A stretch of DNA of 64,000 nucleotides, taken from Candidatus Eiseniibacteriota bacterium (GTDB lineage Bacteria; Eisenbacteria; RBG-16-71-46; JABDJR01). Of this stretch, positions 1 through 17,645 are shown piece after piece; the first letter of the stretch is position 1; each line of letters starts with the position of its first letter. The stretch is taken from assembly GCA_963762255.1 (NCBI GenBank), contig CAVXKA010000001.1, positions 832,001-896,000 on the forward strand, written 5' to 3'. A program made the position numbers and the translations under genes. The notes beneath the pieces were generated by a model. The model worked only from the letters and a program-made list of their open reading frames with translations, searched no databases and was not told the DNA's origin.

Positions 1-648
1 CGGGAGTACTTCCCGGGGCCGGACACCGGCGTTGAGTTCTGCGACCAGATCGGCAATCGCGCCACCTTCCTCCGGCAGGGGGAGTGGCTTCTTGCCCAGG
101 ACTTCGCCGAGGCAATCTTCTTCGCCGAAGACGATTATTTCTACCGGCCCGACACGTTCCTCCCCATGCTGTCCTTCCTGAAGGAGGGACGGGGGATCGA
201 CTTTGTCACCCCCTACGATCACGTGGACTACCACGTCCATCCCCTCCATCGCCGGACGAAGCTTCGCCGCGAACACGAGGGCCGGACGTGGCGGCGGGAG
301 GCGACGACCTGCCTCACCTTTCTCACCACCCGGACCGTCCTGGGGGAGACGTGGCCCCTCTTCCGGGCCTTCGCCGACGGCGCGGCCGACAGCACCATCT
401 GGGCCGCCCTCACCCGGATCCTCTTCTCGCCGGCGACCATCCTTCGCAACGCCCCCGCCGACCGCGAGGTGCCGGTGATCTACGCCGACGCACTGCGCCG
501 CTTCCCACGACAGATCCTGGCCGGGAAGAGCTACGGGCTCTGGTGCCCGGAACCCGGCTTCGCCACCCACCTCGAGTCGACCGGCCTCGCCCCCGGCTTC
601 AGCGTGGAGGAGCTTCTCGGCCTGGGCGGGAGTCGTCCGGAGGCCTGA
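1..648 (+). CDS. Glycosyltransferase-like protein (GT-A/family 2-like), 5' partial
   Basis: Frame 1 is open from base 1. It reads ...IFFAEDDYFY... (acidic metal-binding-like motif) and TPYDHVDY, and stops at TGA 646-648. Codon usage is genome-typical and GC-rich. Confidence 0.55.
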   Translation, partial: REYFPGPDTGVEFCDQIGNRATFLRQGEWLLAQDFAEAIFFAEDDYFYRPDTFLPMLSFLKEGRGIDFVTPYDHVDYHVHPLHRRTKLRREHEGRTWRREATTCLTFLTTRTVLGETWPLFRAFADGAADSTIWAALTRILFSPATILRNAPADREVPVIYADALRRFPRQILAGKSYGLWCPEPGFATHLESTGLAPGFSVEELLGLGGSRPEA

Positions 649-850
649 CCACGGAGCGGCCGATCAAGCGAATCTCGACGCTTCATCCCTGAAATGCCCT
701 ATGCCGGATGGCGTTCCGGGCAGTACAGGCCCTTTCAACGCCGCAGGCCGGGATTCGCTGGATACATGGGCGGGGGTTGCAGGCTATCCCCCGGAACTCA
801 CGGGCCTGGAGTTGGGTCTGCTCCAAGGGTACGGCTCCTGGCGGGTGGGA

Positions 851-902
851 CTATACTGAACAGCAGAGCCTACTACTGGGTTCTGTCCAATTCACGTTCG
901 GC
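851..902 (+). other. Candidate attI-like / first cassette boundary (core GTTCGGC at 896-902)
   Basis: GTTCGGC is the exact reverse complement of the attC1 R'' core GCCGAAC (2112-2118). The upstream DNA lacks a canonical attC L-box geometry. Confidence 0.4.
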
Positions 903-935
903 CCTCTCGGCGTAATCGCCATTCCGGAAAGTTGA

Positions 936-2054
936 GTGAGGGAGATGGAGCTCTCGGCTGTAGATGTCCGATCGATGCGCAGCACGGACCTCTCATGGCA
1001 GACAATTCGGGACGGCGTCGAGGTTTCGTTCCTCCCGCGGCGAATGGTTCAGGAGAGTGGCTTCACTCGTGGGGCTGTGCTCTCCTGGCGATGGGATCGA
1101 GATCTGTTCGAAGGCCGCTCGCGCAATATTGCGCTCGCGCTCCATCATGCAATGCGTACGGAGATTGAGTGGCTGTTCCTGGATCTGGTCACCGTCGATC
1201 AGTCCCTCAGCTCGGAAGAACTGCTCGAGAAAGTCTCGGCGCTCGCGACGCTCTACAAGAAAGTCCCCGTCTTTGTCGCCGGCGACCGTCCCGACGTTCC
1301 GCAGAGCGAATGGGCAAGAACGTTCAGGCGCCCTTGGCTACTCTATGAGGCTAGATCCTACGCGGTGAATCCCGCAGGAGTTACATATCTCGGCTACCGC
1401 CATCGTCTATCGTCCGAGGTCGCTCCGGTCGCGTTCGCTCCCGAGCTCCAAGCCATCAGGGAGGCCGGGTTCGCCATCTACGTTTTCTATGCCATATGGG
1501 GGTACATCGGGATGCAGGACCCCGGAGATTTCAGATTCATCCTGCGGCCCTTCTATTCGCTATTCACCTACCTCCACGAGAGATTGACCAGGGACGATTT
1601 CCTCTTTTCTGTGTTTCTCGTCTGCGCGATCCACGAGCGAACGCAGACAGTCGAAGGTTGGGACGGACCGTTCGACAATGGCTATCGAATAAACTTCCAC
1701 GACATCCGCTTCGAATCGCGGTCCTTCGACCGGTTTTCGATTGGCAAACACGAATCTGCGCGCTTCTATGAGACGCTCCGAACGATCAGCCTAGACGGCC
1801 ATCCCGTCGCCGAATGGAGGAACAAGATGACGAGCAGCTTGGACCGTAACTGGGTCAAAGTTCTGCCCGATGCAGAGCGTTCACGCTTTGATGCGCTCAA
1901 GGTTCCAGACGACGTTCGGCAGGATTACGAAGAGAGAAAGAAGGAACGACTTGCCAGCCTCTTTCTCGACGCGCAGGCGGCCCGGCCACAAGTGCGCCAA
2001 CTAACAGCCTACCTGGATCGCGAAGTGTGGATTCCTTTCGAGCCAGCGGAATGA
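936..2054 (+). CDS. HET (heterokaryon incompatibility)-domain-like protein, gene cassette 1
   Basis: Motifs VLSWRW, WLFLDLVTVDQ, LYKKVPVFV and FRRPWLLYE are in the order of the HET consensus (LSYxW / LWIDxxCIxQ / IYxxA / RxWxxQE). Confidence 0.6.
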   Translation: MREMELSAVDVRSMRSTDLSWQTIRDGVEVSFLPRRMVQESGFTRGAVLSWRWDRDLFEGRSRNIALALHHAMRTEIEWLFLDLVTVDQSLSSEELLEKVSALATLYKKVPVFVAGDRPDVPQSEWARTFRRPWLLYEARSYAVNPAGVTYLGYRHRLSSEVAPVAFAPELQAIREAGFAIYVFYAIWGYIGMQDPGDFRFILRPFYSLFTYLHERLTRDDFLFSVFLVCAIHERTQTVEGWDGPFDNGYRINFHDIRFESRSFDRFSIGKHESARFYETLRTISLDGHPVAEWRNKMTSSLDRNWVKVLPDAERSRFDALKVPDDVRQDYEERKKERLASLFLDAQAARPQVRQLTAYLDREVWIPFEPAE

Positions 2055-2111
2055 AATCAACCGGGGACGTGAGGGCCGAGGTGGCCGAGTTGAGTCACTG
2101 GCCAAGAGAAT

Positions 2112-2197
2112 GCCGAACAAAGCGCTGGAGCCGACGGCATGAATTTCGGTGATTATCGCAGCCTGCAGTGGGCCGCGGCTCAGCGCCAACGTTAGAT
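2112..2197 (+). mobile_element. attC site 1
   Basis: R'' GCCGAAC ... GCGCTGGAGCCG ... CGGCTCAGCGC ... R' GTTAGAT. Imperfect palindrome with an extrahelical base. Confidence 0.9.
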
Positions 2198-3044
2198 GGA
2201 GAAGACTGGAAGGGTGAATCATTCTGTGCAGTCGGGGCCGTGTATCTACTGTAGAACGATCGATGCCCCATTCACCTCTGAGGAACACGTAGTTCCGGAA
2301 TCCCTCGTCGGGGATGAGCTCATTCTGCCCAGAGGCATGGTGTGCGATGTATGCAACTCGGGCGCGCTATCTGACTTGGACAACTGCCTCCAGAACTCGC
2401 CGCTTCTGGGTCTTCACCGCGTACTCTATGGCCCTGGCTTCACCAAGCAGGGCAAGAGACCGATCGCAAATTTCCAGAACGCCTTCCTCTCTCGTCACGG
2501 CGATACTCACATTCAGCTTCGTCCCAAGGACCGGACGGGGGGGATCCGCGACTTTGAGGAACTTCCAGATGGCACCTCACGATTCTCCGTTTCCCTGAAG
2601 AGGCACTTTGACCATGTCAAGTTCAGCAGGGCCCTTCAAAAGATCGGGCTCGGAGCATTCGCCCTCAAGAAGGGGCGGGATCCAGCACTAGATCAACGAT
2701 TCGATACGGCGCGCAGCTTCATACTGCAGGGAGGCACATTCCCAAGTTCGTGGATCCTGGCACTGTCCGGTCCCCCAGCGCCCGGCGGATCGCTCAGGTT
2801 CTGGGATGTCCATCCGCTCGCGCTGTTCGCGTTGGAGGTATCCGGTGTGCGGATGGGATTCCCTCTGGAGCCCACGCCACGATTGGAGGATCTCCCAGTC
2901 GCTGGACTGTTGACCAATGTCGCCTGGTTCCCGATGGATGGGGAGCACGATGACTTTGTAGTCTCGAGCCCATCGGTCGGAGCCGGGAATCAGGACGGCC
3001 CATCTAACGGGCCGCTGCAGCCGCCGCCCGCTCCTGAGGAGTAA
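2196..3044 (+). CDS. HNH endonuclease family protein, gene cassette 2
   Basis: CIYC...SEEHVVPESL...CDVCN zinc/HNH motif. The gene is bounded by attC1 and attC2. Confidence 0.8.
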   Translation: MEKTGRVNHSVQSGPCIYCRTIDAPFTSEEHVVPESLVGDELILPRGMVCDVCNSGALSDLDNCLQNSPLLGLHRVLYGPGFTKQGKRPIANFQNAFLSRHGDTHIQLRPKDRTGGIRDFEELPDGTSRFSVSLKRHFDHVKFSRALQKIGLGAFALKKGRDPALDQRFDTARSFILQGGTFPSSWILALSGPPAPGGSLRFWDVHPLALFALEVSGVRMGFPLEPTPRLEDLPVAGLLTNVAWFPMDGEHDDFVVSSPSVGAGNQDGPSNGPLQPPPAPEE

Positions 3045-3104
3045 GCTGCGGCTTGGAAGGGCGACCGGTTGTCGCGGGCGCGGCTGACCGGCAGCACGTT
3101 AGGC
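3002..3104 (+). mobile_element. attC site 2
   Basis: R'' ATCTAAC is the exact reverse complement of attC1 R' GTTAGAT. Stem CCG-CTGCAGCCGC / GCGGCTGACCGG; R' GTTAGGC. Confidence 0.9.
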
Positions 3105-3142
3105 GAACGAAGATGGCGCAGCGAGTCAACGGCGAGAAACCA

Positions 3143-6100
3143 ATGAACCAAGCTGACCGCGTTTTCATCAGCTACAGCCACCGGGGAAGCGGACCGGGTT
3201 GGAAGGCACGGATGGTGCGGCATCTTGGTGTCTTTGAGCGACATCATCTCCTCGATGTGTGGCAGGACGGCAAAATCCGTGTCAGTTCCTACTGGGACGA
3301 CGACATCACACAGGCCATGAGCAGTGCCCGACTAGCAGTTGTGCTGCTTACCCCTGAGGCTCTCGAATCCCAGTACATCCTTGATAAGGAATTCCCATTC
3401 CTCCGTGAGTGCCAGCAGCGCGACAGGCTCTCGGTGTTCCCGGTGATCTGCGAACCGTGCGACTGGAAAGTCCATGATTGGTTACGAGCGACTCAGGCAC
3501 CGAATGAATCGAATCCCCTCTCACCACTCACCGAAGCCGCGCAAGACCGCATCTTCCGCCAACTCGCCACGGACATCGCGACAGAACTAAGCCGCGTTGC
3601 GTTTGCCGAGTTGCCGAAGTTTGACCAGCCGCCTGCACCCGAACACATCTACCTCGAGAAGTTTCCACTCACCCGTGGCCCCGGGCTGCGTGAGGAGAAA
3701 CTCATTGGCCGGGAACAGGAACTCGCCCTCCTCGACCTCGCCTTCGCCCAGCCGCACACCGCAATCGTCTCTCTCGTCGCCTGGGGCGGCGTGGGCAAGA
3801 CCATGCTCGTCCAGCACTGGCTCCAGCACCTCCAACGCGAGGGCTGGTTAGGCGCGCAGCGCGTCTATGCGTGGAGCTTCTACAGCCAGGGCACCAAGGA
3901 AGACCGGCAAGCCTCCGAAGACACCTTCCTCGCCCACGCCCTCGAATGGTTCGGCGTCCAATGCGAGCCGACCCTCTCGCCGTGGGACAAAGGACGCGTG
4001 CTCGCCGACGCCGTCGCCCGGGAACGCACGCTGCTCGTCCTCGACGGCATCGAGCCGCTCCAGTATCCGCCCGGCCCGATGGGCGGCCAACTCCGCGCCC
4101 CCGGCGTGCAGAGCCTGTTGAAACACCTGACGCGCAACGCGAACTCAGCCGATCAACACGGCCTCTGCCTTGTCACGACGCGCGAACCGCTCGCCGACCT
4201 CGCCGATTTCCAGCGGCGCGAGGCTTCGCCGTGGGGCAGCGTGCTCCGCGTGGACCTTGGCAACCTCACCGCTGAAGCCGGCGCCGCGCTGCTCCATCAC
4301 GCAGGAGCCAGCCGGGCTGGCGCGGCGGAGATCAAACCTGACGACAAGGAACTGATTGCCGCCAGCCGCGAAGTGGACGGTCACGCCCTCACGCTCAATC
4401 TGTTGGGCCGCTTCCTCGCCCGCGCGCACGTCGGCGACATCCGCCGCCGCGACTTGGTGAAATTCGAGGAAGCCGACCGCGAGGAACAAGGCGGCACAAC
4501 CTTCAAGATGCTCGCCGCCTTCGAGAACTGGTTTGCCAACGAAGGCGACATTGAAGCACGAGCCTTAACCATCCTTCGGCTTCTCGCCCTGTTCGACCGT
4601 CCAGCGGATGCGGGCTGCATGGGCGCTTTGCGAAAGTCTCCCATCATCTCCGGGTTGACCGAGCCTCTGTTCACGCTGAGACGGGATTCAAATACCGGTC
4701 AGATGAATGAGAAGCCGCTTTCTGACAAAGCGTGGAATGATGCGATTCATTTTCTTGTCGACTTTGACCTCGTAACCGTGATCGCGTTCGAACGACCTCA
4801 GATTCGAGGCTTCAATATGTTCACAGCACAAGTGATGAGATTCTACGGTCCGAACGCCGGCGTAGTGGAAGAGTTTGACACGGCTTCTGCTGTCCCTGCA
4901 AATGGCAGTTACGTTCTGGAGGCTCACCCTCTCATTCGTGAACACTTTGAGCGGCGTTTACGAATTCAAAGTCCGCACTCTTACAGGAACGGACATTCGC
5001 GCGTGTTCGAGTTCCTCAAGCAATCCGTGCCCTATTGGCCGGAAGGAATCCACAACTTGGTACCGCTCTATCAAGCCGTCTTCCACGGCTGCCGGGCTGG
5101 GGAGTATGACGATGCACGCGAACAGGTGTTCCGGGATCGCATCCTTCGCGCTACTTCCGGGCCGTGCGCGAATTACAGCACTTTTTCGCTCGGGGCTTCC
5201 GACGCGGATCTTTCTGCTCTAGCTTGCTTCTTTGAGATAGCTTGGACACGAGCAAGAGAGGCATTCTCCGATCAGGCAGTAGCTTGGATTCTCAACGAGA
5301 CAGCTTTTCGCCTTCGCGCTATTGGTAGGATAACAGAGGCCGTCGAACCGTTGCGTGCGGCTGTCGAAGCGTCCGCAAGGTTGAGCGACTGGAGTAACGC
5401 GGCGCTTGATGCTGGCAATTTGAGTGAAGTTCACCTTGTCTCGGGAGACGTAGCCGCAGCCGTAATGGCAGCGGATCTCTCCGTCCAATACGCCGACCGA
5501 GCAAAGGACAAACCTCCAACAACGAACGAATCACCGTATTGGCCGATCCACATGCGCGCCCGACTCGCCGCCGCGTTCTTTCAATCCGGGAAGAGTGAAG
5601 ATGCACGGATCTTGTTTGAACAAGCGGAGGAAGGACAGCGGCGTGCTCAGCCCGAATTCCCCGTGCTTTACTCCGTGTCCGGCTTCCGATATTGCGAGTT
5701 CTATCTTCACGGGCCTGAACGCGCTGCTTGGAGCACTACACTTCCAGGTCTCGATTTCGTCTGGGAATCTGCGGATATGTCGTTGACGTGGACAGCTCAG
5801 AAGCGGGCACGCCAAGCACTTCATTGGCTGGAGCAATTCGGTAGCCGTGGCCTCTTGGACATAGCGCTTGACACCTTAACACTAGATCGTTCGGTATTGT
5901 ACCGGACGGTGGTTGATCACTATTCAGCGCCAAACCGCGAAATCGCACTACGCATGCTGCAGGCGGCACTACCTCCGATGCATCATCAGTTCACACTGAT
6001 TGTCGATGCTTTCAGACAGTGTCGCTCGCAAGAATTCATCCCTTTAGCCCTGTTGACGCGCGCTTGGGTGCGGTGTTTGAAAGGAGACACTGCTGGTTCC

Positions 6101-6328
6101 AAAGTCGACTTGGACGAAGCGTGGGACATTGCCGAGCGCGGGCCGATGCGGCTGCACATGGCCGACATCCACCTTTACCGCGCCCGGCTCTTCTTCCGCG
6201 AGAAACCTTACCCGTGGAATTCTTCGCAGGACGACCTCGCCGCCGCCGAGAAACTCGTCAACGACTGCGGGTACCACCGCCGTGACGAAGAACTCGCCGA
6301 CGCCAAGCGCGCCATCCTAGGAGCATGA
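3143..6328 (+). CDS. TIR domain - STAND/NB-ARC-like NTPase - TPR protein (NLR/Avs-like), gene cassette 3
   Basis: TIR motifs VFISYSH...VWQD...SQYILDKE. GREQEL, Walker A WGGVGKT, Walker B LLVLDGIE, VTTR, GHALTL. Helical TPR-like C-terminus. Alternative ATG at 3113. Confidence 0.88.
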   Translation: MNQADRVFISYSHRGSGPGWKARMVRHLGVFERHHLLDVWQDGKIRVSSYWDDDITQAMSSARLAVVLLTPEALESQYILDKEFPFLRECQQRDRLSVFPVICEPCDWKVHDWLRATQAPNESNPLSPLTEAAQDRIFRQLATDIATELSRVAFAELPKFDQPPAPEHIYLEKFPLTRGPGLREEKLIGREQELALLDLAFAQPHTAIVSLVAWGGVGKTMLVQHWLQHLQREGWLGAQRVYAWSFYSQGTKEDRQASEDTFLAHALEWFGVQCEPTLSPWDKGRVLADAVARERTLLVLDGIEPLQYPPGPMGGQLRAPGVQSLLKHLTRNANSADQHGLCLVTTREPLADLADFQRREASPWGSVLRVDLGNLTAEAGAALLHHAGASRAGAAEIKPDDKELIAASREVDGHALTLNLLGRFLARAHVGDIRRRDLVKFEEADREEQGGTTFKMLAAFENWFANEGDIEARALTILRLLALFDRPADAGCMGALRKSPIISGLTEPLFTLRRDSNTGQMNEKPLSDKAWNDAIHFLVDFDLVTVIAFERPQIRGFNMFTAQVMRFYGPNAGVVEEFDTASAVPANGSYVLEAHPLIREHFERRLRIQSPHSYRNGHSRVFEFLKQSVPYWPEGIHNLVPLYQAVFHGCRAGEYDDAREQVFRDRILRATSGPCANYSTFSLGASDADLSALACFFEIAWTRAREAFSDQAVAWILNETAFRLRAIGRITEAVEPLRAAVEASARLSDWSNAALDAGNLSEVHLVSGDVAAAVMAADLSVQYADRAKDKPPTTNESPYWPIHMRARLAAAFFQSGKSEDARILFEQAEEGQRRAQPEFPVLYSVSGFRYCEFYLHGPERAAWSTTLPGLDFVWESADMSLTWTAQKRARQALHWLEQFGSRGLLDIALDTLTLDRSVLYRTVVDHYSAPNREIALRMLQAALPPMHHQFTLIVDAFRQCRSQEFIPLALLTRAWVRCLKGDTAGSKVDLDEAWDIAERGPMRLHMADIHLYRARLFFREKPYPWNSSQDDLAAAEKLVNDCGYHRRDEELADAKRAILGA

Positions 6329-6410
6329 ACCGTCATCAGGGACCTACATCTGGGAATAGGGGGCGCCGTAGATCGAAAGGTCGGCAATGGCTGCGTGTTC
6401 GGGAGCGTGC

Positions 6411-6470
6411 GCCGAACAACAGCATGCAGCGGACGGCGCTGCGCGCCGCAGCTGATGCTGGGCGTCAGGC
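6411..6470 (+). mobile_element. attC site 3 (R' core mutated GTT to GTC)
   Basis: R'' GCCGAAC, CAGCATGCAGC / GCTGATGCTG inverted repeat, R' GTCAGGC. GTCAGGCGTCAC matches the reverse complement of GTGACGCCTAAC (7464-7475) at 11 of 12 positions. Confidence 0.85.
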
Positions 6471-6483
6471 GTCACGAATAGGC

Positions 6484-7431
6484 ATGGTGATGGCTCCATA
6501 TCAGGTGTTTGTCTCTTTCAAGAATCTTGATGGCCATGGAAACCCGACGCCGGACAGCGTGTTGGCGGCGACTGTCAGTGGTTTTCTCGCCAGTCATGGC
6601 CTTCGCGTGTTCTTCAGCAATCAGTCTCTCGAGAAGCTTGGAACAGCCGCCTACAAGAAGGCGATAGACGATGCCCTTGACGCTTGTTCGGTGCTAGTCG
6701 CCGTCGGGACCTCGGCCAATAACCTACAATCGCCGTGGGTCCAGTATGAATGGGACAGCTTCTATAACGACCTTTTGAGCGGCTTGTGGCCTCACAAACG
6801 GCTCTTCTCCTATGTCAAGGACATAGTACCGCGCGACCCGCCTCGTTCGCTGCGACAGAATCAGTCGATCGTTCACATCGACGCGACTGATGCGTCATTG
6901 ACGTCTCTGCTCAACTTCGTTCGCAACGCACTGCCAGAAGACGGTTCAGGTCCCCAGGCAGCTGCTCAAGACTTAACGGACGAGACGATCGCGTCACTAT
7001 CGCTGGTAGAGAGGCTGGCTCTGGGCATCTTGTGCTGGGATACCGAGACACCAGACGTCCTGCACGAGTCGATCCTTCCTCTCTGGCATTCTCTCCCGCG
7101 GCTGGCTCGTCGTGCATATTCGGACTACGCCGACCAAGTCATCGATCAATTCGGCGCGCTGGGGTACGACTTGGTGCCTACGGACGACAGATCCTCGGTG
7201 TTTCGCTTGACCCCGGATCAAGTGGAAGCACTCGCGGGGTACGAACACATGGAGTGGCTTGCCAGGAAAGCGGCTTTCGGGTGGCAGTATGGTGGCTGGA
7301 TGGACAAGCCAAACAAACGCAGCCCGTTTCTGGCTCCCTGGTCCGATCTTCCAGACCGGGCAAAGCAACTTGCTTTGACGGACGTTCGGTCACTTCCGGT
7401 TGCTCTTGCGGCGGCCTGGTTGCGGTTATGA
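6484..7431 (+). CDS. TIR domain - RyR repeat protein, gene cassette 4
   Basis: N-terminal TIR: VFVSFKN...VFFS...AIDDALD...SPWVQYEW. C-terminal RyR repeat: LAGYEHMEW...GWQYG...DKPNKRSPFLAPWSDLP. The longer ORF call from 6325 runs through attC3. Confidence 0.82.
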   Translation: MVMAPYQVFVSFKNLDGHGNPTPDSVLAATVSGFLASHGLRVFFSNQSLEKLGTAAYKKAIDDALDACSVLVAVGTSANNLQSPWVQYEWDSFYNDLLSGLWPHKRLFSYVKDIVPRDPPRSLRQNQSIVHIDATDASLTSLLNFVRNALPEDGSGPQAAAQDLTDETIASLSLVERLALGILCWDTETPDVLHESILPLWHSLPRLARRAYSDYADQVIDQFGALGYDLVPTDDRSSVFRLTPDQVEALAGYEHMEWLARKAAFGWQYGGWMDKPNKRSPFLAPWSDLPDRAKQLALTDVRSLPVALAAAWLRL

Positions 7432-7468
7432 CGGACGTCGGATGGAACGATGTGATCGCAGCTGTGAC

Positions 7469-7537
7469 GCCTAACACGGCATGCACCAGGCGGCGCGCGG
7501 GGTACAGCGCGCCGCTGGTGATGCCGAGCCGTTAGGC
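7469..7537 (+). mobile_element. attC site 4
   Basis: R'' GCCTAAC, CGGCATGCACCAG / CTGGTGATGCCG, R' GTTAGGC. Confidence 0.9.
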
Positions 7538-7567
7538 AGGCAATGGGGCTTGGTTACGGTGGCTGGA

Positions 7568-8035
7568 ATGCGATTCTTTCTAGTCGTCTTGATTGTGGCC
7601 CTGGGGGGATGTGGGTCCGAGTCATCGCCCCAGCAGACTGTGCCGATCCCTGACGTGACAGATGACATGACAGAGGAGTGCGAGTGTCTTGCCGTGGCTC
7701 CCTACTTCTCGGCTTCCTGTGTCGGGATTGCGGGGGCCATGCCGCACATGGTCCCATGCTGGCGCGCGATCGTGGCGCACGCAGACGGGGACGATCACTT
7801 CAGGGAACTTCTCGATCACGCGACGTTGGCTGGGCAGTTGTATGGGCTCGCGGGGTTGTACTTCACGGACCGTAGCGGTTTTGACATGTACGTTCAGCCG
7901 TACCTGGCAAGCACTGACAGCGTCCGCACGTTCGAAGGTTGCATCATCCGTCGTGTCGAGGTACGGGAACTCATGGGGGGGTTCCTGAATGGAACGACGC
8001 CAGCGGCCCTGCAGTCACTGGAGTGTCCATTCTAG
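7568..8035 (+). CDS. Putative lipoprotein, gene cassette 5
   Basis: MRFFLVVLIVALGG|C lipobox-like signal. The gene lies between attC4 and attC5. Confidence 0.7.
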   Translation: MRFFLVVLIVALGGCGSESSPQQTVPIPDVTDDMTEECECLAVAPYFSASCVGIAGAMPHMVPCWRAIVAHADGDDHFRELLDHATLAGQLYGLAGLYFTDRSGFDMYVQPYLASTDSVRTFEGCIIRRVEVRELMGGFLNGTTPAALQSLECPF

Positions 8036-8045
8036 TCAAAGGGCT

Positions 8046-8151
8046 GCCTAACGGGCCGCTGCAGCCGCCGCCCGCTCCCCCCGGGGAGTAGGATAGGGCC
8101 TTGAAGGGTGGCCGGTGGTCCCGGGCGCGGCTGACCGGCAGCACGTAAGGC
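8046..8151 (+). mobile_element. attC site 5 (same family as attC2; R' GTAAGGC)
   Basis: CTGCCTAAC is the reverse complement of GTTAGGCAG at 7531-7539. The body is closely similar to attC2. Confidence 0.85.
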
Positions 8152-8229
8152 AACATCGGGCAGTCGCAGTCGGTCTGTCGGGGCCGGAACCGCTGGAAAT
8201 CGCGGGTCAGACTTCGAAGGGAGGGCCGA

Positions 8230-8655
8230 ATGATCGGAGCACTTGTGGCCAGGAAAGCGCTGGCGGGCGCTTTCGATGCGTTGAACCGGCATGATCTGCC
8301 GAAGTTCATGTCGGCCTGGCGGGACGACGGGGTGTTTGTCTATCCCGGCGAAATACCTGAAAGCGGGACCTTTCAGGGCAAGAGCGCCGTCGCAGGCTGG
8401 TTCGGACATTTCTTCGAGCAGTTTCCAGGGATCAGATTCGAGATTCAAGACCTCTGCGTCCGGAACATCTTCGACCTTTCAGGCACCAACGTCGTCGCTG
8501 TGCACTGGAATATCCAGCTTACCAACCGAGAGGGACGTGTAGGCCAAAACAGCGGCGTGACGGTCGTGAACATCAAATACGGCAAGGTCTTCCTCGTGAA
8601 GGATTTCATCTTTGATCTTGGCGACAACTTCAGGCGCAATTGGAGTGCATCGTAG
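8230..8655 (+). CDS. SnoaL-like / NTF2-family protein, gene cassette 6
   Basis: AFDALNRHDL...WRDDGVFVYPG...GTFQGKSAV pattern; GGAGG upstream. Confidence 0.8.
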   Translation: MIGALVARKALAGAFDALNRHDLPKFMSAWRDDGVFVYPGEIPESGTFQGKSAVAGWFGHFFEQFPGIRFEIQDLCVRNIFDLSGTNVVAVHWNIQLTNREGRVGQNSGVTVVNIKYGKVFLVKDFIFDLGDNFRRNWSAS

Positions 8656-8666
8656 CGAGCGCAGCT

Positions 8667-8763
8667 GCGTGACTGGCGTTTGCAGTCCCCGCCCGCTCAT
8701 TGGGAGTGGAATCGGCCAAAGAGCCGGCCGTCGCGCGCGCGGCCGACCGGCAGCACGTTAGAG
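8667..8763 (+). mobile_element. Degenerate attC site 6 (attC2/5 family)
   Basis: R'' has decayed to GCGTGAC. TGCAG...GCCCGCTC is retained on the left, and GCGCGGCCGACCGGCAGCAC-GTTAGAG on the right. Confidence 0.75.
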
Positions 8764-8770
8764 AGCAGCA

Positions 8771-9484
8771 ATGCCAAGAAGACCTCGACCGATGCGGACA
8801 CGGCGCAGTGAGCACTGGCTCCGTGCTGCCGTGAATAAGCATTCGGAGCCCCTGAATGCACGGGTGCGTACCGTTCTTGGACTTGCGCCCAATGACGCGA
8901 TCCACTGGCTCTCCCCGCTGGCGGATGACGAGTTTGCGGAATACTACGACGAGGCATTTCTCGAGAGGCTCGAGATCAGAGGACTGTCAGTGCCCCTGAG
9001 CGAGTTTTGGCCAGCAGGCGGTCCCAGGTGGGATGGGTTGGCACGCACGAGTTCTGGTGAGCACATCCTGGTTGAGGCCAAGGCATACGTGGAAGAGGCC
9101 GTGGACTACCGCAGCCGAGCCGGGGAATCCTCTCTGATCAAGATCCGCTACGCCTTGGGATTGGCGAAGGAGGCGTTCCGCGCATCGGCCGAAGGATCGT
9201 GGGAGCGGCCCTTCTACCAGTACGCCAACCGTTTGGCGCATCTCCACTTCTTGCGGGGTCTGAATGGAGTGAAGGCGCGTCTTCTCTTCTTGTATTTCGC
9301 CGATGCACCAGATGTTCCCCGGCCCTGTAGCGAGGACCAGTGGATTGGTGCAATCCGGCTGATCAACAAGGTGCTTGGGCTGGGTGAACACCCATACCAA
9401 CCGCATGTTGGACACCTAATATGGAGCGTCCAGGATCTGCTCTCAGACCAGTCGTTACAGCCGCCGCCCGCGCCTGGGGAGTAG
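8771..9484 (+). CDS. Hypothetical protein with PD-(D/E)xK nuclease-like motif, gene cassette 7
   Basis: PRWDGLA...ILVEAKA catalytic-like motif and YQYANRLAHL. The stop codon lies inside the following attC. Confidence 0.6.
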   Translation: MPRRPRPMRTRRSEHWLRAAVNKHSEPLNARVRTVLGLAPNDAIHWLSPLADDEFAEYYDEAFLERLEIRGLSVPLSEFWPAGGPRWDGLARTSSGEHILVEAKAYVEEAVDYRSRAGESSLIKIRYALGLAKEAFRASAEGSWERPFYQYANRLAHLHFLRGLNGVKARLLFLYFADAPDVPRPCSEDQWIGAIRLINKVLGLGEHPYQPHVGHLIWSVQDLLSDQSLQPPPAPGE

Positions 9485-9500
9485 GATCCGCGCTTGAAGG
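9442..9500 (+). mobile_element. Left half of attC site 7 (attC2/5 family)
   Basis: CTGCTCTCAGAC (9437-9448) matches the reverse complement of GTTAGAGAGCAG (8757-8768) at 10 of 12 positions. It continues CAGCCGCCGCCCGC...GGGGAGTAGGAT...TTGAAGG as in attC5, then stops. Confidence 0.75.
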
Positions 9501-9501
9501 C

Positions 9502-10188
9502 ATGACATCGGAGAGCGCAATGAGGCACTGTGGACCGTGGATAGCAGCTCCTGTGATCTGGTTAGCCCTTTCCGGCCATGCGCCCCCGGTTCTTGGCGGG
9601 GAGTGCACTGAAGGGGAGGACCACTATCTTACGGACATTGAGATCCACGGATCGCAAGCGCACGACGAGAGCTTCCACTGCCTACAATGGACGGCGGCTG
9701 ACTGGAGCAAGTGGGCCGGCCCGATCGCTGGCTCCATGTTCGAGGAGTGCCGACGATCGCCGATTCGTGAACGATTGACCGCGGCATGCACACCGCTGCT
9801 CGCCGACACCGCGCGGGTGACCCTCGAGTGGCGGATCCCTCGGTACCGAGCAGCCGTGTTGCTCGCTTCGTACGGCATACCTCGCGTTGCCGACCAGGAT
9901 ATCTTTGGGATCATCACCGAGGAGATGCGAGGCCGGGGCTCCTTGGGCACGGCGGACTACATGGCGCTGGCGGCCCTTCGAGACCCAAGGACGGTGCAGT
10001 TCCTGGCCGGAGAATTCGACTCTGTCGCCTCGGTGCGTGCCCCGGATCGGCTGGAGGTGATCCGGGACATTCTGAACTGCCTCTACCATGTTCCGGGAGA
10101 TTCAGCGGTCGCTCTTGCGAAGACGATCAGTGAGAGGGAGCGCGATCCCGCGATCAAGGAGAGGGCGGAGAGGGTCATTCATCGGTAG
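9502..10188 (+). CDS. Secreted hypothetical protein with HEAT-like C-terminal helices
   Basis: Hydrophobic N-terminus after ATG 9502/9520; ALAALRDPRTVQFL...IKERAERVI HEAT-like repeats. Confidence 0.6.
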   Translation: MTSESAMRHCGPWIAAPVIWLALSGHAPPVLGGECTEGEDHYLTDIEIHGSQAHDESFHCLQWTAADWSKWAGPIAGSMFEECRRSPIRERLTAACTPLLADTARVTLEWRIPRYRAAVLLASYGIPRVADQDIFGIITEEMRGRGSLGTADYMALAALRDPRTVQFLAGEFDSVASVRAPDRLEVIRDILNCLYHVPGDSAVALAKTISERERDPAIKERAERVIHR

Positions 10189-10189
10189 A

Positions 10190-10212
10190 ACTGGCCGTCG
10201 CGGGCGCGGCTG
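10190..10212 (+). mobile_element. Remnant resembling the right half of an attC2/5-family site
   Basis: ACTGGCCGTCGCGGGCGCGGCTG compared with attC2 ACCGGTTGTCGCGGGCGCGGCTG; no intact R' follows. Confidence 0.55.
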
Positions 10213-10237
10213 GGTGACGGAGCGACAAGTACACCCT

Positions 10238-10855
10238 ATGCGACGTTGGTCAATCCTCGTAGCCGGCGTTTCCCAGATCGCCGTGGGCCTGTCTCAGGTG
10301 GCGGCCTTCCCGGCGATCGATTGCTTCCCGGTTGGGCCGTACGGCTTGTCTCAACAGGACTCCAGCGTTGTGTCCGGCGCGTTGAGCCTGGATGGGTGGA
10401 GCCGGATCTGTCTCCAGGTGCGAGATCCCGGCTGGGACGCGACTGATTGCGAATACGTGTACCCCACGGACGTGTTCCGCCTGGCTGATTGTCGGGAGGA
10501 CACTCTTCGCTTGGCTGGCTGCGCCGGCGACTTCGACGGTGACGGGCAGCGGGATGTTGCGCTGCTTGTCAAGCGGATCGGAGACGGTAGCGTTCGAGCC
10601 TTCGTCCGCTTGGCCAAGGGCGATGGTTTGCACACCGTCCAATTGCCGCCGATCATGGACGAGTACGGTTTCGAAAGTGACCCGACGATCCCTCCGGGGC
10701 CCTTCTGCATTCGCAAGCCAGTCTCTGGTACGGTCCATTTCCAAAGCGAATATGGGGATTACACGTACTCGCCGAAGGGAGATCTCTTGGTTCTGGGCTG
10801 GGAGACGTATGCATGGGGCGACACGGGCTTTGTGGTCGTCCACACGGCGGACTGA
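10238..10855 (+). CDS. Secreted hypothetical protein with one FG-GAP/VCBS-like Ca-binding motif
   Basis: Signal-like MRRWSILVAG...; GDFDGDGQRDVALL. Confidence 0.6.
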   Translation: MRRWSILVAGVSQIAVGLSQVAAFPAIDCFPVGPYGLSQQDSSVVSGALSLDGWSRICLQVRDPGWDATDCEYVYPTDVFRLADCREDTLRLAGCAGDFDGDGQRDVALLVKRIGDGSVRAFVRLAKGDGLHTVQLPPIMDEYGFESDPTIPPGPFCIRKPVSGTVHFQSEYGDYTYSPKGDLLVLGWETYAWGDTGFVVVHTAD

Positions 10856-10938
10856 GTCGATGGCGTGCCACGCGCCATCGGGCGGCTTGCGCCCGGTGCT
10901 ATAGTCGAATCTACCCCATGCCTCTTCGGAGGTCGCTG

Positions 10939-11691
10939 ATGACATGTCCATGTTGCTCGTACGCGATTCGACTGCTCGTCACTTCGCTGGCTCTGATCGG
11001 GGTATCGAGCGTTTCGGCGTGGGCCGGGACCAATCCCAACGCGGTCTTCGCGCTCCACGCCAAGGCCCACACGACCAAGCCCGTGTCCATATGCACGACG
11101 CGGAGCCCGAATAGCGGCACCCCGATCCCGTGCACCAGCTACGTCACCCAATGGCCTCTCGCCACAAGCGCGGATGTCTACCTCGTGGTAGCGCGCGGCG
11201 ATTCGGTGACCGGTATCGTCGGCGCTTCCTGCGGGGTCCAGTACAACCAGGCAGTCGGCATGGGCGTCGATATGCACGGTTGGACGCTGTGCGCCGACTT
11301 GGAGTCCATCAGCGCCGGCCCCAACGGCGGATGGCCGAACTCCGGCGGCGGCAACCGCATGACCTGGGTGGCGTCGACGAACTGCCAGCGGACGGTGGCT
11401 GGCGACCAGGGCGTGCACGCGGTGGCGGGTGCGTTCTACGTCTATGCCTATGGCACGGATGTCCTCAACCTCACGGAAAACAAGAACGTGGCGTTTCCCG
11501 AACTGGCCGTGGCCAACTGCTCCGGCCATACGGACCATCTCCCTTGGGCTCGGGTCGCGTTCGTGACATTCTCGGCGGGCGGTGTACTCGAGGGCTGCAA
11601 TCCCTGCACAGAGCCCAACGCGTCCTGTGAACGACCTGTGCCTGCGCTGCCCACCACCTGGAGCAATCTGAAGCAGAGGTTCGGGGGGTAG
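10939..11691 (+). CDS. Secreted Cys-rich protein with C-terminal TWxxLK tail
   Basis: GGAGG RBS at 10928; signal peptide ending AWA; C-terminus PTTWSNLKQRFGG. Confidence 0.8.
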   Translation: MTCPCCSYAIRLLVTSLALIGVSSVSAWAGTNPNAVFALHAKAHTTKPVSICTTRSPNSGTPIPCTSYVTQWPLATSADVYLVVARGDSVTGIVGASCGVQYNQAVGMGVDMHGWTLCADLESISAGPNGGWPNSGGGNRMTWVASTNCQRTVAGDQGVHAVAGAFYVYAYGTDVLNLTENKNVAFPELAVANCSGHTDHLPWARVAFVTFSAGGVLEGCNPCTEPNASCERPVPALPTTWSNLKQRFGG

Positions 11692-11859
11692 GCCGCGCAA
11701 GGACCGAGATGATCACCGGTGGTGGGGTTCGTGACTCTGGCGAGGATGGTAAGCTCACCGCACAATCCGTCTCGCGGAGCGCCTCAATTCACATAGGGCA
11801 GGGCCAGCGCCCGTCGTAACCGGGGGTCGTCATTACTCGCAACGCGCGATAAGTCTCGG

Positions 11860-12032
11860 GCAGAATCTCGTCTTCCTCAGGCGTTCCTGATCGCGCTGGC
11901 GACCTTCGGTATCATTGCTCTGAGCTTCTTGAGCTTGCGGTCATCCGGTGGTCGGCAGCGCAGATCAGGGTCTTTGCCTATTTCAACAACCTGGTCCTGA
12001 TCGGGGCATTCTTGGGGATGGCGCAGTTCTGA
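11860..12032 (+). pseudogene. N-terminal fragment of a membrane-bound spermidine-synthase-like protein
   Basis: AFLIALATFGIIAL, then a frameshift at a duplicated TGAGCTT, then LELAVIRWSAAQIRVFAYFNNLVLIGAFLGM and an early stop. Confidence 0.5.
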
Positions 12033-12040
12033 CCCAGACA

Positions 12041-12074
12041 CAAGAAGGGCCGCCCCCGCGAACGAGGGCGGCCC
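12041..12074 (-). terminator. Rho-independent terminator
   Basis: GGGCCGCCC / GGGCGGCCC stem followed by TTCTTG on the minus strand, just past the stop at 12095. Confidence 0.65.
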
Positions 12075-12094
12075 CTGACGGCGGTCAAGCCATG

Positions 12095-12805
12095 TCAGCG
12101 ATAGAGGGCCTTGATTCTGCCGAAGGTCGTGGGCTCGGTGGGCACGATGCACTCCTGAATATCGATCGTCGCGGTGTAGATTACGCCGCTGACGACGAGG
12201 GCGGCGTCGCGGTTGTAGATCTGCAGTTGGTTGCTGCCGCAGTGCAGGAGCGAGGTGACATCGACTCCGCCGACCTGAGTTTCCGCGGCGTAGCTGCCGG
12301 TATTGATGCTCGGAGTGACGGCGACACCATTGATATAGACGCCGTCCAGATTGGGACCGCCGTAGATGCCGTCGCCGAGGGCGTCATCGCCCGACCAGCA
12401 GAAGTTCAGGGTCGCGGACTTGATGCAGCAGGTCTGCACGGTGAAGTTCTGACAGTAGAGCGCGGAGGCGGGCGTGCCGACAGGGTCGGTGCCGATCCAG
12501 CGAGCCAGCGGATCGCAGGCGAGCTGCTGGAGCCATGCCCCGTGGGGAGTCATGACGATGGCGGGGCGGCCGGCACAGGCGGCCGCAAAGTCGGCCGCGG
12601 TGAAGGGAAGGGGGGAAAGCGCGGTGCTCCCCACCCCGACCAGCATGTTGATCTGCGGATCGGGGCTACCGATGGGAGCATTGCCGCTGCGCAGGACGAC
12701 GGTCTCCGCCGCCACCGGTGCGGCGCTGCCGAGTGCGAGCACACACAAGCAGGACACCAGGGCGATGCCAAGAACGCGAATCGCATGATCGTTTCGCCTG
12801 AACAT
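12095..12805 (-). CDS. Secreted beta-sandwich/lectin-like protein with C-terminal TFGRIKALYR tail
   Basis: GAGG RBS; signal peptide ending VAA; VYINGV...VTSLLHCGSNQLQI jelly-roll-like pattern; C-terminus PTEPTTFGRIKALYR. Confidence 0.8.
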   Translation of the reverse strand: MFRRNDHAIRVLGIALVSCLCVLALGSAAPVAAETVVLRSGNAPIGSPDPQINMLVGVGSTALSPLPFTAADFAAACAGRPAIVMTPHGAWLQQLACDPLARWIGTDPVGTPASALYCQNFTVQTCCIKSATLNFCWSGDDALGDGIYGGPNLDGVYINGVAVTPSINTGSYAAETQVGGVDVTSLLHCGSNQLQIYNRDAALVVSGVIYTATIDIQECIVPTEPTTFGRIKALYR

Positions 12806-13143
12806 GATGAGACCTCTTTGGGTGGGGTTTGATTGGATCGAACGGGAGCGACGCAAATAGACGACAGGAAGAGCCGACTCAGTTGCAAACAGGACTAGTT
12901 TAGTCGTAATTATGTGCGATGGCAAGCTCAAGCAGATGGGCCCGAAATTCTCCCGCCTGCCGGGGGGGCGATTCCGCCCTGATGGGTGCCGCAAGGCGCC
13001 CCGCGACTTCCTGCAATAGCTTCGATATCAATCACTTTCGCTCCCGTAGCGTTTGACGAGAACTCCTGTTGACTCGTTAGATGACAAATATTATCATCTT
13101 TACCTGACAGCAGATACGCTTCCCAAGACGAAAGGGGTCCGAC

Positions 13144-13530
13144 ATGCGGATTTCCAAGAACGACGTTCCGGTCAAGATCGATGCTCCGGGCGCCGTCGCC
13201 CGCCAGTTGAAGGACTTCGGCGATGCGACCGGATACGGCAAGATCGGCGGCGAGTACTTCTCGCTTGCTGCAGGAACGGACATCACCCCCCTCCTGCAAG
13301 GGCTCAAGGACGACCTCTGCCAGGCGCCGCACTGGGGCTATCTGTCGAAGGGCGCGCTCACCGTCACCTACGCCGACCGCACCCATGAATCGGTGACCGG
13401 CGGCGATTTGTTCTACTGGCCGCCCGGGCACACGGTGCGCGCGGATGCCGACGCCGAGATCATCCTCTTCAGCCCTCAGCACGAACACAGCCAGGTCATA
13501 GACCACATTCTCGCCAAGATGCAGGGCTGA
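13144..13530 (+). CDS. Cupin-domain protein
   Basis: CQAPHWGY...GDLFYWPPGH cupin motifs. Confidence 0.8.
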   Translation: MRISKNDVPVKIDAPGAVARQLKDFGDATGYGKIGGEYFSLAAGTDITPLLQGLKDDLCQAPHWGYLSKGALTVTYADRTHESVTGGDLFYWPPGHTVRADADAEIILFSPQHEHSQVIDHILAKMQG

Positions 13531-13662
13531 TCGCCTCGCGGTCCGCCCTGGTTGTCGCGCGACGCATGAGCATCAGCAATCGCGCGGCGCGCCACTCTCC
13601 AAGGCGGGTCCGCAAGCCCCGGCATTCAGTGGCTCGCGAGTCTGGAGTGCTAGGATTCCCGC

Positions 13663-14376
13663 ATGCCAAAGATGCTGGACGTGTTCGGAGATGTTCTCTA
13701 TCGCGCCCACGAGTGGAGAACAGAGAAGCGCTTCGATCGGAAGATCCGCCGCGGGTTCCTTCGCGAGGAGCCTCGCTATCGCCCGATCACAGAGATCGGT
13801 GAAAGCCTCTACGCTGGCGCGCCGCCGGGGTCGGTTGAGCACGCTCACATCCAGCGTTACGACTTTGCAGGCCAACGGATTTCGCCGGGTCTCGTGCTCA
13901 ACGCGGCCTGCGGCTCAGGGTATGGGAGTGAAATCCTGGGTCGATCGGGATCCAAGGTGGTCGGCGTCGATCTCTTCAGAGAGCCGCTGAAGCTCGCGCG
14001 CACGCAGTTCGGCAAGCATCTCTACGTGCGCGCCGACATCGTCGATCTGGGGATGTTTGTGTCGGATCGCTTCGACGCGGCGGTCAGCTTCGAGACCATC
14101 GAGCACATCTCCGATCCGCATCACGGGATCGGGGAGATGAAGCGACTGCTGCGACCGGGGGGATCGTTCCTCGGCTCGATCCCCATCCAGATCCTCCACC
14201 ATCCGGGAACGAATTTCACGTTCTCTCAAGCGTGGAACTTGGTGGAGCGCCACTTTCCGGGAAGCGAGCGGTTCCTCCAGGACAATCGGCGCATTCTGCC
14301 CTTCTCGGACGCGTCGTGGCGCACCGTGCGGTTCGAGAAGGACAAATTCCTGATCTTCCACTGGGTCAAGCGCTGA
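13663..14376 (+). CDS. Class I SAM-dependent methyltransferase
   Basis: HIQRYDFA, VLNAACGSGYG, VVGVD, FDAAVSFETIEH, LLRPGG. Confidence 0.85.
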   Translation: MPKMLDVFGDVLYRAHEWRTEKRFDRKIRRGFLREEPRYRPITEIGESLYAGAPPGSVEHAHIQRYDFAGQRISPGLVLNAACGSGYGSEILGRSGSKVVGVDLFREPLKLARTQFGKHLYVRADIVDLGMFVSDRFDAAVSFETIEHISDPHHGIGEMKRLLRPGGSFLGSIPIQILHHPGTNFTFSQAWNLVERHFPGSERFLQDNRRILPFSDASWRTVRFEKDKFLIFHWVKR

Positions 14377-14400
14377 CCCGGATCTGTCCCCGCAATGCAC

Positions 14401-15219
14401 TCACTTCTGGGGTGGCGGGCCGCCGAGGGACCCCGTCGACTCCGGCATCGACGCGGTCTTGGGCTTGGGCGCGGGCGGGGACTTGATTTCACCCGCGTAG
14501 TCATCTCCCAACGCGTGTTGCCGGAGCGCGGTGAGGTCATGGTAGCCGACGACGGCATCTTGGATGACACCGTTGCGGTCAATGAAGAACGTGGTCGGTA
14601 TCGACGCGATGCCGGAGTATGGAAGCGGCAGGTCCTTGCCGGAGGCAACGGGGTAGTTCATGCCCTTCTTAGTCACGAAGGGCCGCAACGTGGCTTCGGG
14701 CTCCTGACTGATGCCGACGATCACCAGTTCGTCCGGTGAGATCAGGCTCCGCAACGCGACGAAGTGCGGAATTTCCTTCACGCACGGTCCGCACCATGTG
14801 GCCCAGAAGTCCAGCACGACGCGCTTCCCCTTCAGTTCGCTAAGGGTAAGGCTCTCCCCATCGAGAGTGGTGACGGTAAAGTCGGGTGCGGGCACGCCGA
14901 TCCACTCGTCGACTTTGACGGCGTTCTTCTCTACCTCCTCCATCGTGATCTTGAGTTGTTTGGCGAACTTGATGTAGAACGGGGTCATCGCACCGGCGAT
15001 GAACAGACCGATAAGGGAGAGGACAAGCCCGCTCCACGCCATGCGTCGAGCCGCAACGGATCTGCGCAGATGCAGGATCGCCAGCAGGAGCCCTAGGACG
15101 CCAAGCACTCCACCGACGAGGAAAAGGCCCAGGACAACGGCAAGAATGCCGAGCACGAGGCTCGCAATCGCGAGACCGATCGGCGGCCGGTCGGATTCGG
15201 GTGGTGCGTTCATGGTCAT
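14401..15219 (-). CDS. Membrane-anchored TlpA-type redoxin (DUF4190-like N-terminus)
   Basis: LAIASLVLGIL TM segments; VVLDFWATWCGPC. Confidence 0.88.
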   Translation of the reverse strand: MTMNAPPESDRPPIGLAIASLVLGILAVVLGLFLVGGVLGVLGLLLAILHLRRSVAARRMAWSGLVLSLIGLFIAGAMTPFYIKFAKQLKITMEEVEKNAVKVDEWIGVPAPDFTVTTLDGESLTLSELKGKRVVLDFWATWCGPCVKEIPHFVALRSLISPDELVIVGISQEPEATLRPFVTKKGMNYPVASGKDLPLPYSGIASIPTTFFIDRNGVIQDAVVGYHDLTALRQHALGDDYAGEIKSPPAPKPKTASMPESTGSLGGPPPQK

Positions 15220-15450
15220 GCTCTATCCTCCCGTGGCGGCAGAATATCACGGTATGCGCAAGGGGGTTGCCGGGGCCCGCGCGTCTTGGTGGTCGGCAGC
15301 GGGGAGTGCGTGACCGGCCTGCTCCGCACCCCGGCTCGGTGCTGCATGCCGTGATCCGAGGTTCTTATGTTGCGTTGCACGTACATGACAGATATACGCC
15401 TGCATCATTGTCTTGCACGCGCATTCTCGGGTTGATATTCTGCCTCCACC

Positions 15451-17030: not shown

Positions 17031-17068
17031 ACCGGCGGCCGCCCCGCCCGTCACAGCTCGGACCCTCC

Positions 17069-17634: not shown

Positions 17635-17645
17635 GGCCGCCTCCG

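Follow-up and report, generated by a model that had tools for sequence, protein, structure and literature searches.

We found that a 64,000-nucleotide stretch of DNA from a Candidatus Eiseniibacteriota bacterium (GenBank assembly GCA_963762255.1, contig CAVXKA010000001.1, positions 832,001 to 896,000; hereafter, the window) carries a gene for a protein that resembles the heterokaryon incompatibility (HET) domain proteins of Ascomycete fungi over its whole length. The gene occupies window positions 936-2054 on the forward strand, where it leads a cluster of integron-type cassettes and is followed by a probable attC recombination site. Its product is predicted to consist of an alpha/beta core of TIR/HET type that is interrupted by a large inserted module. 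We propose, at what we judge to be an even chance, that this cassette-borne, HET-like protein is a single-gene suicide or defence effector that would cleave NAD+ or a related nucleotide.

The gene and its protein family

The open reading frame (ORF) at 936-2054 is a real, intact gene that encodes 372 amino acids (protein P0001) in a stop-free translation and is present as one copy in the 4.14-Mb, 3-contig genome. Its start codon is a GTG at 936, and an ATG is also in frame at 948. A first-pass annotation of this DNA, made from the letters alone, had picked out four motifs in the order of a HET domain, and all four were found in that order in the translation: LSWRW (residues 49-53; nt 1080-1094), WLFLDLVTVDQ (residues 79-89; nt 1170-1202), LYKKVPVFV (residues 106-114; nt 1251-1277), annotated as LY...V.V, and RRPWLLYE (residues 131-138; nt 1326-1349).

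A phmmer search of 1.84 billion cluster representatives returned 163 relatives at E ≤ 1e-3; tightening the threshold to 1e-10 left 134, and to 1e-30 left 19. Most relatives are 330-430 amino acids long and can be aligned end to end with the window protein. We aligned 80 full-length members, picked from 150 listed with long ones preferred. Four residues, N64, R132, W134 and E138, are invariant in this alignment (80/80), and S50, W51, R52, W53, D54, S62, D83, Q89, P111, V112 and P133 are conserved in at least 90% of members. Given this conservation and the size of the family, the motifs represent the conserved core of a real family, beyond what chance would produce. Three of the invariant residues (R132, W134 and E138) fall within the RRPWLLYE segment, a WxxxE motif whose glutamate is a candidate catalytic residue. 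A search for further homologues with the 80-row profile returned six relatives, all already known, and a search with residues 40-160 for longer proteins returned none; this hints, weakly, that the family has no fused NLR-type forms. Two relatives carry extensions that have no Pfam match: ~230 amino acids at the N-terminus of P0158 (617 aa, Leptodontidium) and ~130 at the C-terminus of P0002 (508 aa, metagenome), the closest relative of the window protein.

Relation to the HET domain

Judged by the curated Pfam rule, the window protein is not a HET protein. The PF06985 assignment that the first-pass annotation had expected did not materialize: P0001 has no Pfam, PADLOC or NCBIfam match at E ≤ 10, a PF06985 search of the six-frame genome found nothing, and no relative tested reaches the gathering cut-off of 22.5 bits (best 21.3, 20.1, 19.4 and 18.6 bits). 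Above that cut-off, PF06985 was likewise found in 0/206 genomes of the host's own phylum, in 0/401 Proteobacteria and in neither of the genomes G206 and G207.

By every softer criterion, the protein is HET-like at the level of sequence. If the motifs merely mimicked HET and the family were unrelated to HET or TIR, several independent signals would have to agree by chance, and we consider this very improbable. PF06985 was chosen independently by 36 of the 80 members at E ≤ 1 (best 2.8e-4, all sub-threshold), while each of the 16 other Pfam families listed was matched by a single member and none recurred. When proteins were scanned one at a time, 16/30 matched PF06985, 15 of them within profile positions 27-106 and one from position 3; through the alignment with a Cladorrhinum relative, the matching region corresponds to about residues 58-110 of the window protein, which hold SRN, helix A, the LFLDxxxxDQ strand and the LY..PV strand. 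In an ESM Atlas feature search, the top match was an Ascomycota cluster named 'putative Heterokaryon incompatibility domain-containing' (0.98, 210/256 features), and HET-carrying clusters made up 29 of the 30 matches. UniRef, finally, gives the name 'Heterokaryon incompatibility domain-containing protein' to the Cladorrhinum (P0013), Paraconiothyrium (P0063) and Glarea (P0086) relatives.

The order of the three HET blocks (betaA; hydrophobic-D-x4-DQ; W-x3-E) is also kept by the window protein and its family, taking the HET consensus letters to be those that we assumed for the comparison. HET is described as three conserved sequence blocks in the available text of Dyrka et al. (2014; PMC4986451). 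Because the scores fall below the curated cut-off, we place the family as a sister of Pfam HET and not as a listed member. The description 'bacterial HET protein' therefore stands in its looser sense, carried by recurrent near-threshold PF06985 matches and by fungal homologues named HET, and falls as a formal Pfam assignment.

Kinship with fungal proteins

The closeness to fungal proteins extends well beyond the HET motifs. In a BLASTP comparison, P0001 aligned with the Cladorrhinum samala protein P0013 at 33% identity over 334 amino acids (E 3e-48), the C-terminal two thirds included. We looked up 30 family members by exact sequence for names and organisms, and all organism-named members or clusters among them are Ascomycetes, in the genera Cladorrhinum, Gaeumannomyces, Paraconiothyrium, Neocucurbitaria, Trichoderma, Glarea, Leptodontidium and Hypoxylon. 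At two metagenome loci, the genes next to relatives are eukaryotic: a cyclin at L014 and a pepsin-type protease at L015. A link to fungal immunity had been suggested from the motifs; since the homology spans the full length, that link is stronger than first supposed. Fungal contamination as the source of the gene was considered and dropped, since the 1.72-Mb contig is bacterial and the gene sits there among bacterial attC sites.

An unrooted tree (IQ-TREE, LG+G4, quick search) was built from 101 rows, namely 11 locus ORFs and all stored members of at least 300 amino acids, from which four redundant cluster members had been removed. All rows with eukaryotic evidence (10/10) fell into a single 55-row clade (SH-like approximate likelihood ratio test, SH-aLRT, 99), and the five rows with bacterial evidence lay outside it on three separate deep branches. 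The window protein was placed in a 17-row clade (SH-aLRT 97) together with homologues from two other loci, L002 and L009. Among the looked-up proteins, 8/13 inside the 55-row clade are named fungi and 0/16 outside it have an organism name; P0015, the sister to that clade, has none. One fungal subclade was placed differently in an earlier FastTree run. The tree supports a single split between bacterial and fungal members and, being unrooted, supports no direction.

One scenario, which we regard as doubtful but worth stating, is that the family is bacterial in origin, circulates among bacteria on integrons and defence islands as an uncommon one-gene cassette for abortive infection, entered the Ascomycota once and radiated there into part of the fungal 'HET' repertoire. 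If so, a fungal cell-death domain would have a direct and tractable prokaryotic ancestor in the bacterial protein, whose inserted module would be a sensor fold not seen before.

Predicted structure

AlphaFold2, supplied with the 80-row alignment, gave a confident model (predicted local distance difference test 94.4; predicted template modelling score 0.91). Model secondary structure, structural matches and the relatives' sub-threshold PF06985 matches together point to a TIR/HET-like alpha/beta core at residues ~46-160 (nt 1071-1415), whose elements are, in order, betaA (AVLSWRW), betaB (WLFLD) with DxxxxDQ, betaC (PVFVA), the RPW134LLYE138 helix and betaD. Foldseek against the PDB listed TIR-STING, SARM1 and RPS4 TIR rows, weakly, and gave no match at E ≤ 1e-3. 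By sequence, the family profile had 0 matches in the PDB at E ≤ 10.

In a VIA-align structural comparison with 48,161 chains, the top match was nucleoside 2-deoxyribosyltransferase (NDT; 7.5, 3.6, 124), followed by the TIR domains of SARM1 (6.8, 3.8, 119), IL-1RAcPb (6.5) and MyD88, SpbK, ThsB and RPS4 (5.3-6.0). Alignments to TIR, NDT and flavodoxin chains ran from model residue ~44 to ~368. The first place of NDT would fit a metabolic nucleotide enzyme, an NDT/LOG-like or flavodoxin-like adaptive cassette with no role in cell death. We find this rather unlikely, as the signals at the sequence level point to HET alone, none of the 80 members has an NDT, LOG or flavodoxin Pfam match at E ≤ 1, and the family is patchy and rare (0/860 other genomes; see below), unlike salvage enzymes.

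In the model, E138 and W134 lie in a helix (residues 133-142) that follows the third core strand (112-115), which we take to be the position of the catalytic Glu in TIR enzymes. TIR profiles (PF01582, PF13676 and relatives) had no match among the 80 members at E ≤ 1. When the family was compared by hhalign with the two TIR domains encoded nearby in the window, RPWLLYE was aligned to SPWVQYE of the neighbouring TIR-RyR protein (E 0.092), and the other comparison gave E 0.26, neither of them significant. HET is stated to have the functionally important Glu of TIRs in the available sections of Lapin et al. (2022; PMC9153377). On the basis of topology and this non-significant local alignment, E138, the probable catalytic Glu, may be equivalent to that of TIRs, and the best explanation of the SWRWD, DxxxxDQ and RPWxxxE motifs is that they line one site in the modelled TIR/HET-type core. 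The remote likeness to TIR noted at the outset is supported by the model to this extent, as a TIR-type alpha/beta core with an invariant Glu.

The rest of the protein is dominated by a family-specific module at residues ~160-352 (nt 1413-1991), modelled as five helices, an antiparallel beta-sheet and two helices, with no match to a solved fold. The last two strands (residues 353-367; nt 1992-2036) were confident in the full model and disordered when residues 160-372 were folded alone, and they would complete the N-terminal alpha/beta sheet. Because these strands return to that sheet, the module appears to be an insertion of ~190 residues inside a TIR-like fold. The C-terminal region, earlier described as 'unknown' and possibly a sensor, does lack a known fold; it is, however, no bacterial add-on, being common to the Ascomycota relatives and looking like an insertion within the fold.

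The attC cluster

Repeat search and folding revealed intergenic repeats of ~100 nt with attC boxes (RYYYAAC ... GTTRRRY) and long bulged hairpins; all features of the cluster described here lie on the forward strand. A covariance model built from 22 sites of this genome, run unfiltered on window positions 1-20,000, recovered three training sites (3000-3106, 8044-8153 and 8665-8765) and identified three new sites on the same strand. One of these, at 2110-2199 (GCCGAAC ... GTTAGAT; 16.6 bits, E 0.006), is the probable attC of the HET-like cassette. It starts 55 nt past the stop codon and runs at its end into the ATG of the following gene, and its minimum free energy structure is an end-to-end hairpin with single-base bulges. 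A GTTGAGT heptamer at 930-936, directly before the start codon, fits GTTRRRY and is a possible left recombination point, although a weak one, with a chance expectation of ~1 per kb per strand. The ORF-then-attC arrangement of an integron gene cassette is therefore present, if weakly, through the site at 2110-2199.

Downstream, the cluster continues with an HNH_5 endonuclease-like gene (2196-3044; 282 aa; PF14279, 27.6 bits) and its attC (3000-3106; ATCTAAC ... GTTAGGC; 119.6 bits), a training site of the homogeneous ~100-nt type. The third cassette (3113-7431) holds two overlapping genes, one TIR-STAND/NACHT-like (to 6328; TIR_2 and AAA_16/NACHT) and one TIR-RyR (6325-7431; TIR_2 and RyR), and ends in a short attC at 7467-7539 (GCCTAAC ... 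GTTAGGC; 19 bits, E 0.0014), a near-perfect bulged hairpin with a fold z of -7.49 (0/200 shuffles fold as well). It is followed by an ORF with the training site at 8044-8153 (106.3 bits), a SnoaL-like cassette (8230-8655) with the training site at 8665-8765 (72.7 bits), and an ORF with a decayed attC-like site at 9440-9548 (22.9 bits, E 1.2e-4) that does not fold (z +2.07). With the covariance model, the 20 kb upstream gave no attC, and the rest of the window had no further site at E < 0.05.

These results agree with the first-pass reading of a stand-alone cassette in first position: the gene has its own probable attC, with five attC sites downstream and none in the 20 kb upstream. They agree equally with its placement beside TIR/NLR-type cassettes, the TIR-STAND and TIR-RyR pair lying two cassettes downstream. 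The array itself is an attC cluster with the HET-like gene first and no integrase beside it. TIGR02249 found no integrase near the window, and the ORFs upstream of the array have no recombinase match in the PDB. We conclude that the HET-like gene is, with its probable attC, a one-gene integron-type cassette standing at the left end of an attC cluster that lacks an integrase. A two-gene system made up of the HET-like and HNH genes was considered and dropped, as an attC separates them.

A recently transferred cassette of this kind might be a silent passenger, unexpressed or functionless in its host. No integrase or Pc promoter is nearby, no sigma-70-like promoter was detected in 500-3200, the main integron of the genome has an intI-like gene that appears to be broken, and the GC content of the gene (57.6%, vs 60-70% across the window) is below that of the genome. 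Against this, the ORF is intact and keeps all the family-invariant residues, and its closest relatives (P0002, P0003 and P0005-P0007; 40-68% identity) are intact with the same residues, which argues for purifying selection in the clade of the window protein. We therefore think a silent passenger unlikely.

The best intI-like match in the genome, at C1:1,537,713-1,538,116, looks degraded: it reaches 107 bits where the cut-off is 265, and it is spread across two frames. A 17-nt attC motif occurs 26 times in the genome, and its 22 forward copies comprise 19 in an array at C1:1,538,959-1,557,884 and three in the window. The window cluster is related to this larger integron 700 kb away, whose sites are of the same attC type. 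In the main chromosomal integron (C1:1,537,713-1,557,884; L038, L039), the ~100-nt attC sites number at least 19, are very homogeneous and all share one strand; directly ahead of them, on the same strand as the cassettes, is the intI-like remnant. Stray copies of the motif at C1:488,213 and 490,512 (reverse strand) and at C2:731,530 and 1,157,559 suggest more small attC clusters or stray cassettes.

Several further features of the cluster were observed. The HNH_5 gene forms a single-gene cassette (2196-3106) with a strong attC, and the start codon ATG of the gene shares bases with the GTTAGAT core of the attC before it. The 4.4-kb immune-type cassette at 3113-7539, bounded by the attC sites at 3000-3106 and 7467-7539, encodes a 1,091-aa TIR-STAND protein and a 368-aa TIR-RyR protein, of which PADLOC recognised the TIR part alone (ThsB-like, 2.7e-11). 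GC content is 0.59-0.63 in window positions 1-14 kb and 0.63-0.70 in the remainder, matching the extent of the cassette cluster. The 4.1-Mb genome is unusually rich in TIR domains, with 11 TIR_2 (PF13676) matches above cut-off, several of them in proteins of 500-1,400 aa.

Bacterial relatives and distribution

Bacterial sources of the family number at least three at the phylum level: the window genome, whose 1.72-Mb contig bears bacterial attC sites, a proteobacterial metagenome-assembled genome (MAG) and an acidobacterial MAG. A copy of 44% identity (L002) is present in the proteobacterial MAG, and a fragment of a family member (L003) in a Silvibacterium MAG. We distinguished five bacterial contexts, namely the window, L002/L007/L008, L009/L010, L013 and L021. 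At L013, the neighbours are a Type ISP restriction enzyme and an indolepyruvate oxidoreductase; L021 is gene-dense, and its assignment to bacteria, through a caspase-domain gene, is tentative. No neighbour gene is common to the five contexts, which indicates that the HET-like gene is solitary. No attC was detected beside the other bacterial homologues; the test is a weak one, the model being tuned to the attC type of this genome. The defence context is therefore suggestive and not conserved.

At L009/L010, ~300 bp separate a homologue of 38% identity from a divergent Hcp gene (T6SS_HCP, 8.4e-16). TIR/NADase-type folds serve in secreted toxins, and the protein might accordingly be an offensive, NADase-like effector delivered to competing bacteria or fungi, for instance via type VI secretion, instead of a part of intracellular immunity. 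However, Hcp is seen in a single one of the five contexts, where it is encoded on the other strand, no small immunity-like gene is conserved next to the homologues, no PAAR, Rhs, MIX or signal region is found (the protein has no Pfam match at all), and the neighbours in the window are immune genes of the intracellular type. We hold an offensive toxin to be decidedly unlikely.

Neighbours at two other contexts were recorded. A 645-aa caspase-domain (Peptidase_C14) protein is encoded at L021:9100-11034 (reverse strand), close downstream of a family member that is distantly related (30% identity), which gives a HET-like gene a second neighbour of cell-death type. The proteobacterial homologue (L002:918-6077, reverse strand, and L008) adjoins a gene for a 1,719-aa fusion of DEAD/Helicase_C and UvrD-type helicases, with an NYN/OST-HTH gene, an SRAP gene and an IS21 element in the vicinity; the region looks like a defence or mobile one.

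The family is rare. Beyond the seed genomes, its profile was found in 0/60 relatives of the host genome, 0/400 other genomes of the acidobacterial MAG's phylum and 0/400 other Proteobacteria, or 0/860 bacterial genomes in total. Plasmids and phages searched by tblastn had no match to the family, nor did viral contigs (0/37 pattern matches). The absence from 60/60 relatives of the host, together with the lower GC of the gene, speaks for its accessory nature.

Proposed function

We propose that the inserted module restrains the TIR-like core in an inactive state. A trigger, phage or some other stress, would be sensed by the protein itself, acting as both sensor and effector. The core would then cleave, via E138, the N-glycosidic bond of NAD+ or a related nucleotide, and this cleavage would lead to growth arrest or death of the infected cell, that is, to abortive infection. 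A single-protein sensor-effector is the most economical arrangement in light of the defence cassettes known from integrons, the immune-type neighbours and the killing of fungal cells by HET. HET domains suffice to kill fungal cells, according to the available sections of PMC10890737, PMC10197012 and PMC12881547. Integron cassettes are documented reservoirs of anti-phage systems in the available text of a preprint (Kieffer, 2025; 10.1101/2024.07.02.601719), and phage-defence cassettes are attributed to Kieffer (2025) and Darracq (2025) in that of 10.64898/2026.03.17.712381.

Several results weigh against a HET-like defence effector. In addition to the sub-threshold PF06985 scores, the PDB search without a significant Foldseek match, the non-significant hhalign comparisons with the neighbouring TIR domains, the missing integrase and promoter, and the lack of a shared neighbour or of attC sites at the other bacterial loci, the attC at 2110-2199 is weak (fold z -0.84) and not of the genome's homogeneous type. 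PADLOC-DB 2.0 has 0 families that match the HET-like protein at E ≤ 10. The activity and structure of HET are entered as 'ND' in the available part of a 2025 review (PMC12881547).

HET-type genes in bacteria, from fungal endobacteria and among Pfam-annotated sequences, are already known, as are defence cassettes in integrons. What appears new is a distinct HET-like family just below the Pfam threshold, with a full-length architecture common to Ascomycota and several bacterial lineages; an integron-type cassette that carries a HET-like gene beside TIR-STAND cassettes; and an inserted module without a known fold. We found no description of a bacterial HET-like defence gene or integron cassette in the literature, where the supplementary lists of Kieffer, Darracq and Dyrka 2014 might hold relatives. 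The main value of the protein is as a tractable bacterial handle on HET biochemistry. It is a compact, intron-free, full-length homologue with an invariant candidate catalytic Glu. Expression, mutation and assays are all feasible in E. coli, which opens the killing mechanism of HET to direct tests. Its gene would be a further defence candidate, one outside PADLOC coverage, and the protein offers a concrete link between bacteria and fungi for one more immune module, with the integron cassette as a plausible vehicle.

Comparison with known systems

Enzymatic TIRs (SARM1, AbTir, ThsB of Thoeris and the TIRs of plant TNL proteins) differ from the window family in that the latter has an apparent insertion of ~190 residues before the last strand and no TIR Pfam match in 80/80 members; its NADase activity is putative. 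The phage-defence integron cassettes of Kieffer and Darracq, as far as the available texts describe them, are like the window gene short, promoterless-looking one-gene units followed by attC and stacked with immune-type cassettes in the same orientation. Unlike them, the window gene has no PADLOC 2.0 model, its array has no integrase, and its role in defence is putative.

HET-domain genes have been reported in fungal endobacteria and attributed to inter-kingdom transfer (Daskalov, 2023; PMC10197012, available sections), and a 'Candidatus' HET sequence appears in Fig. 6 of Dyrka et al. (2014; PMC4986451, available sections). The endobacterial genes, like the window gene, are HET-type genes within a bacterial genome. 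They are described there as canonical Pfam HET from the fungal host, whereas the bacterial members of the window family form several deep branches outside the fungal clade.

The closest parallel is with the fungal HET proteins themselves (PF06985; HET-E/D/R, TOL, PIN-C, HET-6 and BH1 of Podospora and Neurospora). For BH1, a 'HET-associated domain' has been described, to which the module at residues 160-352 might conceivably be related. HET is sufficient for cell death and remotely TIR-like in the available text of Dyrka (2014; PMC4986451) and Clave (2024; PMC10890737). The window protein differs from these fungal proteins in being bacterial, in being carried on an integron-type cassette and in lacking NACHT/WD40 or lectin partner domains. 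In both, the three blocks follow the same order, the death domain or its counterpart occupies the N-terminal position ahead of a family-specific region, and an invariant Glu stands in a W-x-x-x-E context; the restrain-then-kill logic that we suggest for the bacterial protein is the same as that proposed for fungal HET domains.

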